DNA from: an uncultured virus (IMG/VR IMGVR_UViG_3300017752_000005)
Taxonomy: Duplodnaviria; Heunggongvirae; Uroviricota; Caudoviricetes
Direction: 5' to 3' (one strand)
IMG/VR virus record: IMGVR_UViG_3300017752_000005
DNA length: 64,000 nucleotides
The notes beneath the pieces were generated by a model. That model searched no databases. It had not been told where the DNA came from and saw only the letters and a list, made by a program, of their open reading frames with translations. Below, in pieces: positions 1,399-46,344 of the stretch. The number at the start of each line of letters is the position of its first letter. Position 1 is the stretch's first letter. Both the position numbers and the translations under genes were made by a program.

Positions 1399-2604
1399 TT
1401 ACCATAGGTCTTCGCTAAAGTCAATATCCTTTAGTTGTTTTTTTTCTGATAGTCCTTTGTCGGCAGCTTTTTTCGCTATATCTTTATTATAATCAAGGAA
1501 CTGATACTTAGGACAGCCTTCATAAAATTTTCTTTCTATTTTCTGTCCCTTTGTCGGCTTAGGAAGCTCCTTTTTTAAATCAGAAGTTTTGATAACAGAA
1601 CCGTCTTCATCACAAATCGCCCAATAGAATTTAGCAAACTTATATTGACAACCCCACATGATAGAGCCGTCTTTTTTCTTGTGTGTTGGAGAGTCTGCTC
1701 GACCACAAATTAATTGACCCGAAAAGCCATAATATTTATCAGGATAGCCTTTGTCTTTTGCAAAGTTGTCTCTTGCTAGGTCTTCGTTAAAGTTATCAAT
1801 AACTTTTTGAACATCTGTTAAATAATACTCAAACCCTTTTAATTCTGCTGCTGTTACATCAGGTGTAATAATAACACCTGCATCACTGTAATCAATGTTA
1901 AGAGAGCTACCTTTTTCTTTTAGTCTCCTTTTCTCTTCTTGCTCTGTTCTTCCATATTCTTCACCCGAACAGTCGTATTGCATAAAAACAAACTCCATTC
2001 TCTTAACTAAATATTCTGGATATAAATGCCACTGAGCAAGCCTATACATTAAATCTTGAACATTATCAATAAACTCCTTGCCTTCAAATTTTCTTTTAGA
2101 GCTTTTAAAGTCACGGATAATTGACTCTTTCTTCTCTTTAAACAAGAATAATTTATCAATAAAGCCTCTGATTCGATAAGAGATATCTCCTTCTACTTTT
2201 TCAATATTGAAATCTATTTCAGAAAAAGACTCGCTTGGCTTTGCGTTTAACTTTTGCTCTCCGAAAAAATCATAGTTAATTCCTTCAATTAACATCTTGT
2301 CCAAGATCGAACCAAACTCTTCTAATGTTAAACCTCTATTTGTAATGTAAGAAGAAAGGTATCTATGCACAACAGGGCATGATTCCATACATTGCCCTTT
2401 GACTAGCTGATTATATAACTTTTTGTGTCTAGGGTTGCCTAAACACTCATAAACATTATGCAATGCGCTTCCCATGATCGAACCGCTGTTCTGCTGATCG
2501 GGAAGGTTTAAATGATAATTGCACCAATAAATCCAACTGCAAGAGTCTAGTGTTTTTATTCTACTCGCAGATAAGGCTTTGATGGGTCTTGTTGTATCAG
2601 CCAT
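1399..2604 (-). CDS. PD-(D/E)XK exonuclease, RecB/AddB/Cas4-like
   Basis: LSASRIKTLDSC, GSALHNVYE, RGFIDKL, IRDFKSS, QDLMY; Cys residues at both ends suggest an Fe-S or Zn staple. Confidence 0.85.
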   Translation of the reverse strand: MADTTRPIKALSASRIKTLDSCSWIYWCNYHLNLPDQQNSGSIMGSALHNVYECLGNPRHKKLYNQLVKGQCMESCPVVHRYLSSYITNRGLTLEEFGSILDKMLIEGINYDFFGEQKLNAKPSESFSEIDFNIEKVEGDISYRIRGFIDKLFLFKEKKESIIRDFKSSKRKFEGKEFIDNVQDLMYRLAQWHLYPEYLVKRMEFVFMQYDCSGEEYGRTEQEEKRRLKEKGSSLNIDYSDAGVIITPDVTAAELKGFEYYLTDVQKVIDNFNEDLARDNFAKDKGYPDKYYGFSGQLICGRADSPTHKKKDGSIMWGCQYKFAKFYWAICDEDGSVIKTSDLKKELPKPTKGQKIERKFYEGCPKYQFLDYNKDIAKKAADKGLSEKKQLKDIDFSEDLW

Positions 2605-3631
2605 ATAAAAATGCCCATTCTTTTTTAAGCTTGCTAACTTTTGTCCGTAATCCTTTCGGTATCTTAGCGTTAGGTGCGTAGTCTATCAACCTCTTTATAC
2701 AGTCTTTATGAAAATCTGAATTTAAATTTAAGTTTTGTTGGTATTCTTTTAAATTACCTCCATTTTTAATTATTTCTCCAAAATCCTCTGCTGGAGGTGG
2801 GTAAAACCAAATTTTTTCTAGATCGACTTGATCCATAAGCTTCAAGCAAGAAGACAACGCACCGTCAAAACCCCTGTTCTGCCCTTCATCATTGTTAAAC
2901 GCTAATATAATATTAGTATTTAAAGTAGCTAGGCGAGATACTTGTCTTGTGTTTAAGACGTTTGTAAAAGCAACCATATGATTCCTCATGCCCTGTTGGG
3001 TCATAGCCAAAGAATCACCAATGCTTTCAATAACAAAAATTGAATTTTCTTTAATTATTTGATCGGCAACACCTTCTAAAGAAAAGAATGGGTAAAACCA
3101 GTCTGCGCTTTTACCGTAGTGCAACCACTTCGGTCTAGCGTCATCGTTTGCTGGTTCATAGCCCAATCGACCAGAGAAGCCATGAATGCGCCCATCTTCT
3201 CTGTGAATAGGAAAAACGACCCTCTGGTAAAACTTTCCGCTACTTGCAAGACCTGATTTATACTCTTTTAGAACTTCGGTAGAAATGCCCCTGTTTATGT
3301 AAAAAGAATAATCTGGCAATAGTTTTTGCAGACTTGAGTTTGGGAATGTCTTTTCTTCTTTCAAAAATTCCTTTTTGTTATTTGTTGAAAATGAGGTAGT
3401 GCCACTTAGATATTTAGAAACATCGTTGGTATTTAAAGTTTTTTTTAGCAGTATTTCAAATGGCAAAGGCTTGTTACCTTCCACAAAATCGCTCCATACT
3501 CCAGAGTCTTTATAAATTCTAAGAGCGGTTTTATTGTCTCCATCTCGAAAGATAGCACTTGTCTGCCAATAGGTTCCTCTATCCTCAAGATTGTATCCTA
3601 TTTCTCTTAAAATAGACGCTCTATCAATCAT
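2597..3631 (-). CDS. DNA primase (DnaG-like, TOPRIM)
   Basis: RVVFPIH..DGRIHGFSGR, PKWLH, VIESIGD, AFNND; adjacent to helicase. Confidence 0.85.
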   Translation of the reverse strand: MIDRASILREIGYNLEDRGTYWQTSAIFRDGDNKTALRIYKDSGVWSDFVEGNKPLPFEILLKKTLNTNDVSKYLSGTTSFSTNNKKEFLKEEKTFPNSSLQKLLPDYSFYINRGISTEVLKEYKSGLASSGKFYQRVVFPIHREDGRIHGFSGRLGYEPANDDARPKWLHYGKSADWFYPFFSLEGVADQIIKENSIFVIESIGDSLAMTQQGMRNHMVAFTNVLNTRQVSRLATLNTNIILAFNNDEGQNRGFDGALSSCLKLMDQVDLEKIWFYPPPAEDFGEIIKNGGNLKEYQQNLNLNSDFHKDCIKRLIDYAPNAKIPKGLRTKVSKLKKEWAFLYG

Positions 3632-3643
3632 AAATTAAAACTT

Positions 3644-5182
3644 CTAATTAAAACCTGCTGGCAATCCAGAGTCTTGCGCTTCATCGTTAACAAAAATATC
3701 TTCTCCCCTTGAGTTTCTGACGATATCTCTTAGGTCACCCCTGTCTTCTACATTGAAATTGGAAAAATGTAAGTTTACAAAGTTATTTCTATTATTTCCC
3801 TCTACATCCTCTACAGGCTCTAAATGTCCGAAAGCATCTTCTCCCAAGTGTCTTGCGGCCAAACAAATTAGTTTGTGAGTGCCAAAATGATCTCCCTCTG
3901 TAACCCTTTCATCTATTGTTTTCTTCCTAAGAAGGAAAAGATGCGAGACAAACTGAATAATATTATCTGACAACCCAATGACAGATTCATCTTCCACAAT
4001 GGAGTCAGAGTCCCTGTTATTTGTAATACCTAATCTATTTGTTTGAACAGAAGTCACCATAGCAACACATGGATTGCCGTCGAATTTTAATTCTCTACTA
4101 ATAAGCTGTTTGAAATCGTGCAGAGTCTTACCTACAAAGGCCCAACCCGCTCCTTTATCAAGATTTCCAAAATCTGTTTTCAAGTAATCAAAAGAAAAGA
4201 TTAGAGGATTGCCTCTACCTACATCGCTGTAATAATATCTCTTCAGAAGCGAACACATTTCATCAGAACTCATACCGGCAACATTGTGGTAAAGAATCTT
4301 AATCTTCTTCATTTTATCCCAAACATTACGGACCCGCTCTACGACCTCTTGCGCTGTCCAATCTTTATATGCAGTGTGTCTCCACTTACCGCTTTCAAGC
4401 AAGTGAACAGGGATTCCAGACGCTCCAGAAACCATTCGGAACACAAGTTCTTCTTCGCTCATTTCTCCATTATCAAAATGTAGAATTGGAACACCATGTT
4501 CGTATGAGATTTTTAACAACATATCTATCAATAGAGATGTTTTTCCGACCTTTGCTCTCGCCGCTACACAAGTAATGTTTCCCGCTCTAACTAGAGAGCC
4601 GTAAATTTTATTTAGGGTCTGATATGGACCCATAAGCCCAACTTCCTCTGGAGGGTTATCTCCCCTATCTTCGACAATCTGTTCTGCAATGTCGGCTAAG
4701 TTGACAAGTTTTTCATCACCCATTTCAAAAGCAGATACTCCATCATTGTAAATTTTATCCATACCGTCAACCAATTGATTATATGGCATTGATGGGTCTG
4801 CCTTCTTGACATACCTTTGAAGCTTTTCAGAGATATTGAAACCTTCTCTCCTGATAGACACTTTCTTTAGTTCTCTAACAGAGGATAAAAAGTTATCGGC
4901 TGTTACCTTCATAAAGGTAAGGTTTTGAATATAATCAGTTATGTCAATTGAATCAGGGAATGTCATCCCTAACTGTTTAACCCGATAAATTAAAATTGTT
5001 TCGTCAATAGACTCTGCATTGTCTAATGCAGATTTAAGCATTCTAAAGATCGTTACGTTTACTTTTGAGTCCTCAAAGTAAAAGTCTTCATCTGTTAAGA
5101 TGTTAGAAACCTGACCCCAAGCCTCTTGATGTTGTAATATACCAGATATTACTTTTTTTTCTAATTCAAAACTTTTTATCAT
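3644..5182 (-). CDS. dnaB: Replicative DNA helicase, DnaB-like
   Basis: Walker A ARAKVGKTS, GEMS, FDYLK, VQTNR, plus a DnaB-like N-terminal domain. Confidence 0.9.
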   Translation of the reverse strand: MIKSFELEKKVISGILQHQEAWGQVSNILTDEDFYFEDSKVNVTIFRMLKSALDNAESIDETILIYRVKQLGMTFPDSIDITDYIQNLTFMKVTADNFLSSVRELKKVSIRREGFNISEKLQRYVKKADPSMPYNQLVDGMDKIYNDGVSAFEMGDEKLVNLADIAEQIVEDRGDNPPEEVGLMGPYQTLNKIYGSLVRAGNITCVAARAKVGKTSLLIDMLLKISYEHGVPILHFDNGEMSEEELVFRMVSGASGIPVHLLESGKWRHTAYKDWTAQEVVERVRNVWDKMKKIKILYHNVAGMSSDEMCSLLKRYYYSDVGRGNPLIFSFDYLKTDFGNLDKGAGWAFVGKTLHDFKQLISRELKFDGNPCVAMVTSVQTNRLGITNNRDSDSIVEDESVIGLSDNIIQFVSHLFLLRKKTIDERVTEGDHFGTHKLICLAARHLGEDAFGHLEPVEDVEGNNRNNFVNLHFSNFNVEDRGDLRDIVRNSRGEDIFVNDEAQDSGLPAGFN

Positions 5183-21717: not shown

Positions 21718-22185
21718 TTATTCTCCTGTAGAGCCGAACCCACCTTCGCCTCTTTGTGATTCTTTGCAATCACTAAATTTGTCAACCTCAACGTAGTTGC
21801 TAAGTATTTGCTCTGGAAACCAAACTAATTGACCGATCTTATCTCCTTTTTTGTAAATCTTATCAAATTTAACTTTAGAATATCCTTCTATCGTCTCATG
21901 CATCGGCCAAAGATAGCGAAACCTTAGCTTTACTTCTCCCCTATATGAAGAATCTATAACCCCAACTCCGTTGGCAAGAGTCAACCATTTATTAGAAATG
22001 CTTGAACGAGGAAAAATCAACCCGTGAATTGTATCCGCAAACGGTGCTAACCTGACTCCCGTAGAGTATTCTATAAATTGATTTTCGTAATCAAAAACTG
22101 GATCAGACGAAGCTACAAGATCATAACCTAGATCACCATTATTCTTAGGCAGAATATTCTGTTGATTAGTAACTTCTACGAACAT
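21718..22185 (-). CDS. dut: dUTPase (trimeric)
   Basis: GYDL, PRSS, GVIDSSYRGE, GDKIGQL, RGEGGFGSTG. Confidence 0.95.
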   Translation of the reverse strand: MFVEVTNQQNILPKNNGDLGYDLVASSDPVFDYENQFIEYSTGVRLAPFADTIHGLIFPRSSISNKWLTLANGVGVIDSSYRGEVKLRFRYLWPMHETIEGYSKVKFDKIYKKGDKIGQLVWFPEQILSNYVEVDKFSDCKESQRGEGGFGSTGE

Positions 22186-22192
22186 ACCACTG

Positions 22193-22220
22193 AGTATAAG
22201 TCAAAGATTCAAAAAATCAA
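22193..22220 (-). promoter_or_regulatory. sigma70-like promoter TTGATT-N16-TATACT, 7 nt before the dut ATG
   Basis: Read directly from the minus strand. Confidence 0.55.
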
Positions 22221-22257
22221 CTAAAAAATCACTATTTTAACTTTTTTCACTTTTTGG

Positions 22258-22286
22258 TTGTTTTTGGGTTGATGGATTTTTATAAT
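22258..22286 (+). promoter_or_regulatory. sigma70-like promoter TTGTTT-N17-TATAAT upstream of the structured RNA candidate
   Basis: Perfect -10 at 22281-22286 with 17-nt spacing. Confidence 0.55.
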
Positions 22287-22292
22287 AAAAAC

Positions 22293-22500
22293 GGAATGAG
22301 CCGCGAGGCTTATCTCTGAACCTTACAGAGCGGCGGCACTAAGAGCCTAAATCGGAAACCAAACTCAGCGGATAGGCTCTGGAATAAAGAAGAAAGTTAA
22401 TAGATTAACCTTATAGGATGCGTAACGAAGTTAATAAATCCTATAGTGATCATATAACCTATGTTGCCGAATTAGATACAGTCCGGTAGCTAGGTTAGTC
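22293..22500 (+). ncRNA. Candidate structured non-coding RNA of unknown family
   Basis: Six consecutive stems, a GCGA (GNRA) tetraloop and G-U pairs valid only on the + strand; no ORF; own promoter. Confidence 0.6.
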
Positions 22501-22558
22501 TAACCAAACCAAAGAAAGCGTGGATAGAGTTTTTAATGTTCTTTTCTTTCTTTTTGAC

Positions 22559-22587
22559 TTGACTTATTTAGATTATCGGTGTAAGAT
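22559..22587 (+). promoter_or_regulatory. sigma70-like promoter TTGACT-N17-TAAGAT overlapping a GTGTAA motif
   Basis: -10 ends 8 nt before ATG 22596. Confidence 0.6.
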
Positions 22588-22595
22588 TCTACTAC

Positions 22596-23075
22596 ATGAT
22601 TCAAGTAGAGATTACTGACGATATGCTCTGTGCCGCCAGAAAAAAGGCGGTTGAAATGGGCAAGCTTTATAAAAGCATAACAAGAGGTCAGGGAAATCTT
22701 GCTGGTTTCATTGGAGAATTTATCGCCCAAAAGGTTATGGGTGGAAAAGTCGAAAACACTTATGACTACGATCTTGTGTTGGATGATGGAACAAAAGTTG
22801 ATGCTAAGACAAAACGCACCTCTGTAAAACCATTGGAAGAATACGATTGTTCTATATCTACAAGCACAAGAATTCAAGATTGTGATGTATATGCTTTCGT
22901 TCGTGTTAAGAATGACTACTCTGTAGGCTGGTTTCTTGGAGTGAAATCTAAAAAGAATTTCTTTTCAGAAGCAACCGAATACAAGAAAGGCGATAAAGAT
23001 GAGAGTAATAACTTTACTTTCAGAAGTGATTGTTTTAATATTAAAATTGCCGAATTAGATAAATCTTATGAGTAG
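22596..23075 (+). CDS. Hypothetical protein, possible PD-(D/E)XK nuclease fold
   Basis: GFIGE...YDYDLV....VDAKTK resembles the E...D...(D/E)xK pattern. Confidence 0.6.
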   Translation: MIQVEITDDMLCAARKKAVEMGKLYKSITRGQGNLAGFIGEFIAQKVMGGKVENTYDYDLVLDDGTKVDAKTKRTSVKPLEEYDCSISTSTRIQDCDVYAFVRVKNDYSVGWFLGVKSKKNFFSEATEYKKGDKDESNNFTFRSDCFNIKIAELDKSYE

Positions 23076-24054
23076 AGACATTTTCGCTCCAAGGGAGCAT
23101 TTTAAGCCGTTTGAATACAAAGAGTGTGAAGAATATACAGATGCCATTAACCGTTCCTTTTGGGTCCATACGGAGTGGAGTAAAGCTTTAGAGAAAGACG
23201 TTCAAGAGTATCATACCGAACTAACAAAAGAGCAGAAGGAGGTTATTAAAAAATGCCTACTTTTAATCTCTCAAATTGAAGTAAGTGTAAAGACTTTTTG
23301 GGGTAATATCCATACACACTTACCCAAGCCAGAAGTGCAGATGGTTGGTGCTACCTTTGCTGAGTCAGAGGTTAGGCACGAAAGAGCTTACTCTCACCTA
23401 CTGGAAGTTATGGGACTCAATAATGAGTTCGAAAAGATTTATGATATTCCAGTTATTATAGATAGACATAACTATCTTAAAAAATATAAGGATTTTGCTC
23501 AGGCTAGAATGGAGAAAAACTTTGTAAAATCAATCGTTCTCTTTTCTTTGTTTATTGAGAATGTATCTTTGTTTTCTCAGTTCTTTATCATAATGTCTTT
23601 CAATAAGCACCGCAAGAAGCTTAAAGCTGTTAATAATATTGTTGCGGCAACTTCTAAAGAAGAAGCTCTGCATGGTTCTTTCGGAACTTATATCATTAGA
23701 CAAATCAGAGAAGAGCATCCAGAATATTTTAACGACGAGTTCAAATCGTTAATTTATAACTACTGTAGAAAAGCTCTTGATGCAGAGAACAAGGTTTTGG
23801 ATTGGATTTTAGAAGAGGGGGATACTGACTTTATTAAAAAAGAGCAGGTCCAAGAGTTTGTAAAGGATAGGCTCAACACAAGCCTTTCTGGAATTGGCCT
23901 AGACCCGATTTTCGAAACGAATGAAGACCAACTTATAAAGACTAAATGGTTCAATGAAGAACTTTTAAGTGATGTTCATGTTGACTTCTTTGATCAAAGA
24001 CCTACTGCTTACAACAAATTTGATCAGTCTTTCGATGAAGACTCTATTTTCTAA
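23068..24054 (+). CDS. nrdB: Class I ribonucleotide reductase beta subunit (class Id-like)
   Basis: SQIEVSVKTFWG, ESEVRHERAY, IENVSLFSQF, KEEALHG, DFFDQRPTAY. Confidence 0.95.
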   Translation: MSRDIFAPREHFKPFEYKECEEYTDAINRSFWVHTEWSKALEKDVQEYHTELTKEQKEVIKKCLLLISQIEVSVKTFWGNIHTHLPKPEVQMVGATFAESEVRHERAYSHLLEVMGLNNEFEKIYDIPVIIDRHNYLKKYKDFAQARMEKNFVKSIVLFSLFIENVSLFSQFFIIMSFNKHRKKLKAVNNIVAATSKEEALHGSFGTYIIRQIREEHPEYFNDEFKSLIYNYCRKALDAENKVLDWILEEGDTDFIKKEQVQEFVKDRLNTSLSGIGLDPIFETNEDQLIKTKWFNEELLSDVHVDFFDQRPTAYNKFDQSFDEDSIF

Positions 24055-24056
24055 AA

Positions 24057-25700
24057 ATGAATTGGCTAAATAAAAAATCACAAATCTTTCTTAATAACGG
24101 CTACTTGTCAGAAGGCGAGGACGCGATTGAAAGAATTAAAAGCATTGCTTCGGCAGCAGAGAACTACCTTGGTAAAGAAGGTTTTGCAGATCGCTTTTAT
24201 TATCACATGGAGAAAGGTCATTTTCTTCTCTCTTCTCCAGTGTGGGCTAACTTTGGCAAAAAGAGGGGGTTCCCTATTGCGTGTTTTAACAGTCACGTAG
24301 AAGACACTATGGACTCAATCCTCTACAATACAGCCGAAGTGGGGATGATGACTAAAATGGGAGGTGGAACTTCTGGCTACTTTGGTGAAATCAGACAGCG
24401 AGGTGCAGCTATTTCTACGGGAGGCATATCGGATGGTGCTGTAACTTTTATGCAGCTATTTGATTCAGTATCCCACGTATGCAAGCAAGCAGACGTTCGT
24501 AGAGGAAAGATGGCAGCATATCTGCCTATTGACCACGGGGATATTGAAGACTTCTTGAATATTAGAAAAGAAGGTCATCCTATTCAAGACCTGTTAACTG
24601 GTGTTGTTGTAAAAGATGATTGGCTTAAAGAGATGAAGAGCGGAGATAAGGAGAAGCGTAAAGTTTGGGCAAAGGTTCTTGAGAGTCGCGCACAAACTGG
24701 ACTTCCTTATATTTATTTTTACGACAACGCAAATAACGCTGCGCCACAAGTTTACAAAGATAATAACAGAGATATTAAAAGCTCAAACCTATGTTCTGAA
24801 ATTATGCTATCGTCTGATAAAGACGAATCTTTTGTTTGTTGTTTGGGATCAATGAATCTGCTTCATTATGATGATTGGAAGGACACTGACGCTGTAGAGA
24901 TTATGTCCTTTTTTCTTGATTCGGTTTTGACTGAATTTATCCAAAAGTCAGAGGGTGTTTCATTTATGCAAAGACCAAGAAACTTTGCTATAAATCAAAG
25001 AGCGATTGGAATTGGAGCTACAGGTTATCATTCTGTTCTGCAAAGTAAAATGATACCATTTGAGTCTCTTGAGGCTCAGATGTTGAATACAGAAATGTTT
25101 GAAACAATTAAAAATCAAAGCCTTGAAGCATCCAAGAAAGCAGCTAAAGAAATGGGCGAGCCTCCAATGCTAGAAGGTCGAGGGGAGCGATGGGTTACTC
25201 GCATGGCTGTGGCTCCAAATACTTCGTCTGCTTTTATTCTTGGTCAAGTATCACAAAGCATTGAACCTTTCAAAAGTAATTACTATGTAAAGGACATTGC
25301 CAAGTTCAAAGGCACTATTAAAAATAAGTATCTTGAAAAGCTGCTTAAAGAAAAAGATAAAAACACTAGCGATGTTTGGGATTCTATCTTGAGAAATAAT
25401 GGCTCTGTTCAGCAACTGGATTTTTTAACTGAAAAAGAAAAGGCTGTATTCAAGACATTTGCTGAGATTTCTCAAAAAGAGATTATTACACAAGCAGCGC
25501 AACGTCAGAAGCATATTGATCAAGGTCAAAGCCTTAATATTATGATTCCATCGGGTGTTTCTGCTAAAGAAATGAATCAACTAACACTTTACGCTTGGGA
25601 ATCTGGAGTAAAAAGCCTTTACTATCAACATAGCAGTAATGCAGCACAGGAGCTTTTCAGAAAGTTTAACGAAGATAATTGTTCTGCGTGTGAAGGTTAA
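24057..25700 (+). CDS. nrdA: Class I ribonucleotide reductase alpha subunit, no ATP cone
   Basis: SSPVWANFG, ACF, SNLCSEI, CCLGS, APNTSS, IDQGQSLN, KSLYY, C-terminal CSAC. Confidence 0.95.
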   Translation: MNWLNKKSQIFLNNGYLSEGEDAIERIKSIASAAENYLGKEGFADRFYYHMEKGHFLLSSPVWANFGKKRGFPIACFNSHVEDTMDSILYNTAEVGMMTKMGGGTSGYFGEIRQRGAAISTGGISDGAVTFMQLFDSVSHVCKQADVRRGKMAAYLPIDHGDIEDFLNIRKEGHPIQDLLTGVVVKDDWLKEMKSGDKEKRKVWAKVLESRAQTGLPYIYFYDNANNAAPQVYKDNNRDIKSSNLCSEIMLSSDKDESFVCCLGSMNLLHYDDWKDTDAVEIMSFFLDSVLTEFIQKSEGVSFMQRPRNFAINQRAIGIGATGYHSVLQSKMIPFESLEAQMLNTEMFETIKNQSLEASKKAAKEMGEPPMLEGRGERWVTRMAVAPNTSSAFILGQVSQSIEPFKSNYYVKDIAKFKGTIKNKYLEKLLKEKDKNTSDVWDSILRNNGSVQQLDFLTEKEKAVFKTFAEISQKEIITQAAQRQKHIDQGQSLNIMIPSGVSAKEMNQLTLYAWESGVKSLYYQHSSNAAQELFRKFNEDNCSACEG

Positions 25701-25707
25701 AAAAAGG

Positions 25708-25736
25708 TTGACTATATTTGACTAATGATCTATACT
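25708..25736 (+). promoter_or_regulatory. sigma70-like promoter TTGACT-N17-TATACT
   Basis: Ends 11 nt before ATG 25748. Confidence 0.7.
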
Positions 25737-25747
25737 TGTAGTAGATT

Positions 25748-26509
25748 ATGAGTAAAGCAAAAAAAATAGACAACTCAATCGGACCAAAAAAAGTTTCAAG
25801 AGATGAAAATGGTCTGCTAGAAAATATTCAATATATGTTCAATGAAGATGGTTTTGTCGATTGGCGAGCCATGATCAATGATGAACACCTTTACCCCAAC
25901 AAAGGTTGGTTTGAGAAGTTCGACAAAGAAGTTCCAGATTCAGTCAAGGGTTTAAAAGATCATCAACTTTTGATCAAGCTATCTGGTATCAAGGAGCTTC
26001 TGAAACTTAGAGGTTATAAGAGCGTAAATTTTACAGTTATAGAAGCATCTTACGATAGAGCGGTTGTTAAATGTGAAGTTAAATTTACTCCTAATTATGA
26101 AACAAATCACAAATCTATTGACTTTACAGAAGTAGCAAATGCCACTTCAAATAACTGCGATGGCTTCTCTGTTAAATTTTTAGAATCAATTGCAGCTAAT
26201 AGAGCTTTCGTCCGTTGTGTAAGAAACTTCTTGAACGTTCATATTGTTGGTGCAGATGAAATTGATAAGTCTACTCCAAAGAAAGAAGAAGACCAATCTG
26301 ATGTATTGGAAACTAAAACGGTATCTTCCGCTTCATTCAGCCCACAAGAAACTCTGTCTAGTAAATTTGAAGACTTAAAAGACTTCAAAGAAACTTTGCG
26401 AAAGCTTTGGAAAAAGGAACTTTACAGAAATGAAGATGCTGCACTTTGGGATTCTTTTTCAGATATACCAGCAAAAGAAGCTAGAATTATTTTAGGTTTG
26501 TTGGATTAA
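25748..26509 (+). CDS. Hypothetical protein, possible Rad52/Sak-like single-strand annealing protein
   Basis: AVVKCEVKF...IAANRAFVRCVRNFLNVHIVGADEI resembles the SSAP helix motif. Confidence 0.5.
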   Translation: MSKAKKIDNSIGPKKVSRDENGLLENIQYMFNEDGFVDWRAMINDEHLYPNKGWFEKFDKEVPDSVKGLKDHQLLIKLSGIKELLKLRGYKSVNFTVIEASYDRAVVKCEVKFTPNYETNHKSIDFTEVANATSNNCDGFSVKFLESIAANRAFVRCVRNFLNVHIVGADEIDKSTPKKEEDQSDVLETKTVSSASFSPQETLSSKFEDLKDFKETLRKLWKKELYRNEDAALWDSFSDIPAKEARIILGLLD

Positions 26510-42168: not shown

Positions 42169-42184
42169 GTATTATATATTACAC

Positions 42185-42211
42185 AAAAAAGGCGGGGAAA
42201 CCCCCGCCTTT
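42185..42211 (-). terminator. Intrinsic terminator after the major tail gene
   Basis: Minus strand AAAGGCGGGGGTTTCCCCGCCTTTTTT: GC stem plus U tract, followed directly by GTGTAA. Confidence 0.85.
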
Positions 42212-42241
42212 GATGCTATGAACAATACTAAGGTATAAATC

Positions 42242-46253: not shown

Positions 46254-46289
46254 ACCCTATTATATTATTTTTAATGATTAATTTAAAGC

Positions 46290-46327
46290 AAAAAAGCACG
46301 ACCCGATTAACGAGTCGTGCTTTTTTT
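46290..46327. terminator. Intrinsic (bidirectional) terminator after the major capsid gene
   Basis: A6-GCACGACCCG-attaa-CGAGTCGTGC-T7. Confidence 0.85.
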
Positions 46328-46344
46328 AATTCAACAAGTCCTTA

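Follow-up and report, generated by a model that had tools for sequence, protein, structure and literature searches.

The longest internal non-coding gap of a 64,000-nt stretch of phage DNA (the window) raised the question of whether it encodes a structured RNA or acts as DNA. A preliminary description had taken 22293-22500 within this gap as a putative novel structured ncRNA of six consecutive + strand stems, with a DNA-level replication origin named among the refuting alternatives.

Genomic setting

The gap had the length given in that description, 410 nt (22186-22595); the last 530 nt of the window also contained no ORF of at least 90 aa, but that stretch runs off the window end. The window comes from a large phage: the region was identical to a 103-kb IMG/VR contig. 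Sequencing runs containing the region were marine or viral metagenomes, and the nearest virus record (G001) lacked the gap region. A search for relatives with the 159-aa protein encoded next to the gap returned four distinct relatives that were 96-97% identical, and the range between 66% and 96% was empty. The clade comprised the window and two further gene-free sequences (L177 and L178) and two cargo-bearing ones (L002/L176 and L179).

The gap is a strand switch between a leftward operon (dut, encoding dUTPase, dNMP kinase, a sigma factor and glycosyltransferases, with a DnaB-like helicase, a primase and exonucleases at the far left) and a rightward nrd operon in the order 159-aa unknown gene, nrdB, nrdA, so ordered that the 159-aa gene separates the gap from nrdB. 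The flanking features were:

2597-3631, leftward operon: primase gene
3644-5182, leftward operon: DnaB-like helicase gene
22193..22220, - strand: sigma70-like promoter TTGATT-16-TATACT, called by the promoter scanner, serving the leftward operon
22559..22587, + strand: promoter TTGACT-17-TAAGAT, called by the scanner, serving the predicted leaderless operon of the 159-aa gene, nrdB and nrdA

The next gene therefore had its own promoter, as had been claimed, in the scanner call at 22559-22587. The scan returned 4 promoter-like matches against 4.1 expected, so that the scan alone proves nothing, and a terminator scan of the gap called none. Both outward promoters stopped a few bases short of a start codon (22186-22220 and 22559-22596), which suggests leaderless mRNAs throughout the phage family.

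Stems and predicted fold

All six stems of the preliminary description paired without mismatch in the window, and three G-U pairs were found on the + strand (one in stem 1, two in inner stem 6), as that description had indicated. Its upstream sigma70-like promoter had a perfect -10 box, but the -35 box matched at only 3/6 positions and the scanner did not call the site; both boxes were unchanged in 5/5 clade members. The parts of the element were:

22258..22286, + strand: inward promoter candidate, TTGTTT-17-TATAAT, predicted start at ~22293
22296..22313, + strand: hairpin 1, with the loop c-GCGA-g (of GNRA type in RNA, a GNNA mini-hairpin in DNA), unchanged in 5/5, with no covariation information
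22296-22319, + strand: 7-aa ORF overlapping hairpin 1
22314..22330, + strand: hairpin 2, C-G to U.G in 3/5, one pair broken in 1/5, loop variable
22331..22338, + strand: 5' strand of a predicted long-range helix with 22462-22469 (8 pairs, 2 G-U)
22342..22380, + strand: hairpin 3, with G22345-C22377 replaced by U-A in L179, a compensatory change and the sole double change
22396..22409, + strand: stem 4 of the preliminary description, not conserved, broken by T22397G
22403..22463, + strand: variable slot, here holding a hairpin (22412-22445) with a c-GAA-g cap and a family 16-mer at 22410-22425
22418..22489, + strand: doubtful 23-codon ORF, start buried in the hairpin
22464..22487, + strand: 24-mer kept in all three allele types (24/24, 24/24, 24/24 and 23/24 identical)
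22455..22497, + strand: stem 6 of the preliminary description, outer part not conserved
22498..22556, + strand: variable 3' flank and T-rich tract (22488-22537 identical at 26-44/50)

The RNA fold of 22285-22520 reached -59.4 kcal/mol on the + strand (z -2.65; 2/200 shuffles as good), and z was -1.72 on the - strand. The + strand fold was moderate, not extreme: z was ≤ -2.5 in 5/80 sampled 208-nt tiles of the window (+ strand; 12 shuffles each). By part, the three 5' hairpins were not significant (z -1.0), and z was -4.0 for the middle hairpin and -4.5 for stem 6. The 24-mer is predicted to form either the core of stem 6, or the 3' strand of the long-range helix plus a 12-nt junction.

The transcript 3' end likely lies in 22498-22556; a contig from an RNA run stopped at 22554, and no significant terminator hairpin was found in this segment. 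The T-rich tract reported after the element was present (22530-22556) and need not be a terminator, because T tracts precede the -35 box in most gaps of the phage family. In relatives, the small last hairpin with the T tract could be a terminator.

Constraint among close relatives

Within 22293-22487, the two gene-free relatives differed at 3 and 5 of 195 sites, where the 4-fold rate would give ~57, and loops were conserved as well; the 5' module plus the 24-mer differed at 6 and 7 of 114 sites in the cargo alleles. Between window and relatives, 12-16/55 of the 4-fold sites of the right-hand gene differed (22-29%), as did 7-15 of 52-60 in dut. The element, gene-free middle included, is under strong constraint, because only 3-7 sites differ in it compared with 22-29% at the 4-fold sites of the next gene. 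The gene-free middle was identical at 59-60/61 positions across strains differing at 16/55 4-fold sites. The left flank with its two promoters was equally conserved (103-105/107), and for this reason part of the identity may reflect DNA-level constraint or recombination.

The stems held unequally. T22397G, which breaks stem 4, occurred in L177, L178 and contigs of runs X19 and X20. The inner core of stem 6 kept its pairs through two wobble-type changes, and the energy of the stem was -17.7 kcal/mol in the window against -6.3 to -9.7 in the four relatives (about -8 in the two gene-free ones). The probability of the long-range helix (22331-38/22462-69) was 0.94-0.99 in L177 and L178 and 0.05 in the window; in full-length cargo alleles it was not predicted (P 0.0). 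Local and long-range folds lay within ~4 kcal/mol of each other in all three gene-free alleles and compete. Covariation of the element over the five sequences was not significant (129/500 shuffles as high). The six-stem picture thus belongs to a single allele and is not the conserved fold, since stem 4 is broken, the outer part of stem 6 is weakened and the fold switches in relatives.

Two near-isoenergetic states are also predicted under a leader or attenuator of nrdBA, in which alternative pairing (22331-38/22462-69 or 22462-69/22484-90) would set read-through into the nrd operon, perhaps coupled to translation of the 23-codon ORF. The single change in that ORF, in L177 and L178, was synonymous, and L177 carried an 11-pair hairpin just before the T tract. 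However, the 3' hairpin was no better than shuffles in 5/5 alleles (z +0.4 to -1.4), no terminator was called, the nrd operon had its own promoter, the ORF start was missing in the cargo alleles and no riboswitch family matched. Attenuation was considered highly improbable.

Variable slot and cargo genes

In 2/4 close relatives, 22403-22463 was replaced by a protein gene, which was a 334-aa glycosyltransferase-like gene in L002/L176 (PF13692, E 9e-4, below cut-off) and a 215-aa methyltransferase gene in L179 (Methyltransf_24, E 1e-21). The two unlike genes began at one point after an A-rich linker, and cargo was AT-rich (33-34% GC). Homologs of the methyltransferase, 60-69% identical, occurred in other family loci downstream of nrdA. 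Contigs of a DNA run broke at 22402-22492.

These observations would suit an accessory-gene cassette as the primary role, in which a promoter, a folded 5' leader and a 3' hairpin flank an exchangeable gene, the window being its empty form: the common start point, the methyltransferase homologs elsewhere in the family and the contig breaks all favour it. The gene-free middle, however, looked ancestral and selected and not like a relic (59-60/61 identical, with the family 16-mer), 3/5 clade sequences and the RNA contig were gene-free, and no cargo lay inside the core among the listed gaps outside the clade. The closest known counterpart would be the PeSL cassettes of the T4-type phages RB49/phi1, which in the cited excerpts likewise combine a sigma70-like promoter and stem-loops beside a swappable accessory gene (PMC2839356). 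PeSLs number ~50 per genome according to the same excerpts (PMC2839356), whereas the present element was single-copy in the 64 kb, and family cores were single-copy in 4/4 long contigs of relatives. It also differs from PeSLs, as these are described there, in having five or six helices downstream of the start and not one stem-loop at the promoter, and in its conserved gene-free state (PMC2839356). The cassette as the main role was judged rather unlikely on balance. The gene-free allele is likely ancestral, because the middle of the window carries the family 16-mer, and cargo genes would then have replaced the core. A 9-mer of the family was absent from the cargo alleles, in which the core is therefore dispensable.

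Transcription

RNA run X20 (share 0.07) contained one 243-nt contig at 22311-22554, 96% identical and with L177-type changes. Over 20 kb, the same run gave three further contigs (238-266 nt, depth 2-4) inside genes. The X20 library was oligo-dT and may contain DNA, and its missing cover on flanking genes was not counted as evidence. The contig fits, weakly, with transcription of the region, and is no proof of a discrete RNA, of its strand or of its level.

A free-standing, trans-acting structured RNA of ~250 nt (22293 to ~22550), specific to the clade, would fold as a four-way junction. CGGA/UCCG and the helix 22331-38/22462-69 would close this junction, and its large variable loop would leave room for an inserted gene. 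Peripheral loops of group I introns tolerate inserted genes. Only 3 and 5 of 195 positions differed, loops included, and wobble-type changes (C-G to U.G, U-A to U.G, U.G to U-A) and one double change kept + strand pairs; the retention of precisely the 24-mer in cargo alleles would follow from the long-range fold, and the X20 contig lay at the element with nothing on the flanking genes. Against this, the three similar contigs inside genes deprive the X20 contig of value as evidence for a discrete abundant RNA, covariation was not significant, the covariance model of the 5' module matched nothing beyond its training sequences, full-length cargo alleles were not predicted to form the long-range helix, and DNA-level constraint or recombination also explains the identity, the left flank being as conserved. 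Such an RNA was considered unlikely, if not to be dismissed lightly.

Searches for known families and homologs

The claim that the element is not a tRNA, tmRNA, RNase P or intron agreed with the searches. Rfam covariance models (tRNA, tmRNA, RNase P, SRP, riboswitches, introns) gave 0 matches at gathering score in the 64 kb, with a best E of 3.5 in 22100-22650 and 0 matches in 5 relative loci; ARAGORN found 0 in the window. GenBank phages contained no match to the element, and the literature search found no paper on it. In 840 kb of family loci, the covariance model of the 5' module found only its 5 training sequences (next best E 1.1). The 5' module and the 24-mer had no detectable homolog outside the clade, pattern matches in the viral and GTDB collections included; exact-pattern scans returned two clade contigs plus chance matches only (clade share 2/2, 2/4, 2/6 and 0/4). 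A nhmmer search with the family alignment gave no match to the window gap.

Some candidates were tried and rejected. A group I intron would need a 5' partner for the AGAUACAGUCC segment in a P7 helix and, ahead of it, a P8 helix; the gap had no GACUG partner and no room for P8, it is not inside a gene, and G22481 was A in L179. Likenesses compared by eye (group I J8/7-P7, RNase P P4, SAM-I, tmRNA tag, attC) had partners missing or broken in L179. The similarity of the window + strand to the - strand of the L003 gap was not significant (E 3.7).

The gap across the phage family

Queries with the neighbouring sigma factor and glycosyltransferase returned 87 loci, and the gap was extracted from 86 (70 distinct). 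Two cargo loci were dropped and the rest dereplicated to 42 representatives; the promoter count used 43 gaps, namely these 42 plus three added, minus two initiator-bearing ones. A divergent gap between the replication operon and nrdBA is present at a conserved position in the phage family. Besides the two outward promoters, a near-consensus inward sigma70 site was found in 29/43 gaps, 22 on the + and 7 on the - strand (2 set by hand; assignments in L112 and L145 doubtful). The family core (70-300 nt, palindromic) lies under the inward promoter. The recurrence of this divergent gap at 86 family loci, as a rule with one more promoter that points toward a palindromic core, is a new result.

The cores could not be aligned across the family, but had a common signature. 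Hairpins with c-GNA-g triloops numbered 23 on the - strand, in 16/42 representatives, against 1.4 ± 1.2 in shuffles (maximum 5), although many of the 16 belonged to one subclade and are not independent, so that the counts overstate independence. Two were found on the + strand, and many triloops had tandem G.A pairs. Mini-hairpins on the template strand numbered 21 in 14 gaps against 6 in 5 gaps. RNA tetraloops were not enriched in the cores (GNRA 7 and 8 against 5-6 expected; cUUCGg 1 and 1), and the transcript strand folded no better than its complement (14 vs. 14). A - strand hairpin of one subclade covaried, with double changes in 4/18 pairs and 0/500 shuffles reaching the score, in a set of 10 sequences chosen by the author, one of them mis-cut.

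Direct repeats occurred in the gaps of L133, L146, L161 and L111, the cores of L133/L180 having 6-7 tandem 14-mers; none occurred in the window. At the gap of L134 (3950-4213, - strand), an 87-aa winged-HTH ORF matched the replication-initiator PHROGs 428 (E 1e-7), 8102 and 186, with repeated GxTCAAAAAAGAT sites adjoining it, and L137 had a 79% identical homolog. L134 and L137 were the sole family loci, among those examined, with an initiator-like ORF, and one of 5 records had it as well; the window had none. The L134-type winged-HTH protein could be a regulator.

Does the window belong to the family

Scored with a weight matrix from 18 family cores, 22410 (+ strand) came out on top among 127,970 positions, at 15.3 vs. 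9.7 bits and with 0.002 such matches expected in the gap, and it remained first when the two closest sequences were removed (11.7 vs. 10.5), the matrix columns having been chosen after the match was seen. A wider 86-nt alignment to the family was not significant (156/2964 tiles as good). The 9-mer at the centre of 22410-22425 was present in 15/42 cores; the 64 kb contain it once, and its density outside gaps was 0.026 per kb. The position of the window gap and its inward promoter matched the family pattern.

The window was an exception to the family in having wobble pairs and both mini-hairpins on the transcript strand; its one c-GNA-g triloop was not significant alone (8 in 64 kb). Cargo alleles contained three stacked G-U pairs, which suit RNA better than DNA, and the stem 6 core as DNA reached only -1.0 kcal/mol in L176. 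A pure DNA model offers no ready explanation for the transcript-strand hairpins and RNA-like wobbles of the window.

A candidate replication origin

T4 oriF/oriG, in the excerpts cited, combine a promoter with an element downstream of it at which an R-loop arises from the transcript (PMC3016281; PMC4412123); the more active T4 origins lie at strand switches, and the downstream unwinding element can be replaced by heterologous DNA (PMC3016281). The gap lies at such a switch of transcription direction, and shares with oriF/oriG and the oriE iterons, as described there, a promoter (here a predicted one) followed by a non-coding element whose downstream part is replaceable (PMC3016281; PMC4412123). 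Direct repeats in some lineages and the phage's own helicase and primase are further likenesses to T4 origins in these sources (PMC3016281; PMC4412123). In contrast to T4 as these excerpts describe it, the promoter here is of sigma70 type where T4 has a MotA middle promoter, a palindromic core takes the place of a plain AT-rich unwinding element, there is no skew shift, and both the R-loop and the origin activity are putative.

As DNA, GCGNAGC/GCGNNAGC mini-hairpins greatly exceed their RNA counterparts in stability, and they are found where priming starts in phages and plasmids, for example at the G4/St-1 origins and RSF1010 ssiA, according to excerpts of PMC13037366. The family cores resembled the G4/St-1/alpha3 origins, ssiA and the N4 hairpin promoters of that source in their one-strand c-GNA-g/c-GNNA-g hairpins, enriched above chance at family level, and differed from the G4/St-1/ssiA/N4 cases described there in belonging to a large dsDNA phage and in lying under a dedicated promoter (PMC13037366). 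A search for T7/N4-type RNA polymerase in 5 partial records gave no match, but the control search was also empty. The 4-fold GC or AT skew, which should flip at a bidirectional origin, did not flip at the gap in the window or the 4 relatives, and same-strand genes kept their sign on both sides.

The stretch is tentatively read as the region of a replication origin that transcription activates and that offers a slot for cargo. The gap is the divergent control region, present in one copy, of a marine phage family. The predicted inward promoter would fire and give a ~250-nt non-coding transcript across the palindromic core, and transcription would open the core for the phage's own helicase and primase. 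As with T4 oriF/oriG, the RNA may persist in an R-loop or serve as primer, and hairpins may form in the single-stranded DNA and be read by replication proteins. The clade's folded 5' module, together with its 24-mer, would shape the transcript, and the two may double as promoter and leader when cargo occupies the slot. An origin would account for a dedicated promoter without a gene, the DNA-type hairpins, the repeats and initiator-like gene of sister lineages and the tolerance of AT-rich cargo. Evidence against it comes from the unflipped skew, the loss of the 9-mer in cargo alleles, the restriction of the initiator-like ORF to few loci, and the window's transcript-strand hairpins and RNA-like wobble pairs.

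Of the proposed ncRNA, a constrained, + strand-folding and probably transcribed element of ~250 nt without a known family was retained. A dedicated ncRNA with these six stems was not, as stem 4 is broken, stem 6 is weakened, 2/4 relatives carry a cargo gene, no homolog was found outside the clade and the family-wide element at this position has hairpins of DNA and not of RNA type; the DNA-level origin is slightly preferred to it. The hairpin-rich locus is likely to be a transcribed region where replication starts, and not an independent RNA gene. That the origin transcript is itself a new ~250-nt phage RNA, with a four-way junction whose halves, the 5' module and the 24-mer, pair across a 0.65-1 kb cargo-gene loop and which licenses replication, was thought very doubtful; if true, one RNA scaffold would both license replication and host a swappable modification gene. 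Replication origins have hardly ever been identified in uncultured large phages, and this conserved promoter-plus-palindrome locus, with its DNA-hairpin signature across the family, is a concrete, testable candidate; in this clade it also serves as an entry site for modification genes.

Fremin et al. (2023) list the candidate structured RNAs DNAVirus_4291/4292 from marine Caudoviricetes, within ≤ 25 bp upstream of nrdB, with 28 sequences and with structures given for both strands (excerpts of PMC10690425). These motifs are 75 and 56 nt long in that source, and the window differs in having the 159-aa gene between gap and nrdB (PMC10690425). They are possibly the short family core, compared by their published description only, and the novelty of the short core is uncertain to that extent (PMC10690425). 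Covarying hairpins upstream of phage nrdB may be DNA structures and not RNAs.

Other observations

The 159-aa protein (22596-23075) was widespread in aquatic phages, where its look-alikes were unnamed viral proteins; it matched no Pfam or PHROG family, and weak look-alikes and neighbours were restriction-endonuclease-like. The nrd block (22596-26509) was among few + strand islands of the window, most genes in the 4 relatives run in the nrd direction, and the gap may border a large inversion. In the L273 contig, the nrdB frame (1757-2811) was interrupted. Hairpins between A and T runs at 46272-46344 and 42169-42241 of the window resembled ordinary intrinsic terminators.

The L090 gap (4526-4959, - strand; 430 nt) had a long nested fold, more RNA-like by eye and free of GNA triloops, and may be a different element. 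The gaps L259:979-1695 (716 nt) and L258:559-794 were rich in GAGCGAAGCGA / GAGCGCAGCGA mini-hairpins on the + strand. An outgroup trio (L180:2630-2905, L200:470-640 and L003:5725-5920) had a common multi-hairpin core with visibly covarying stems, and is a better covariation set than the clade of the window.
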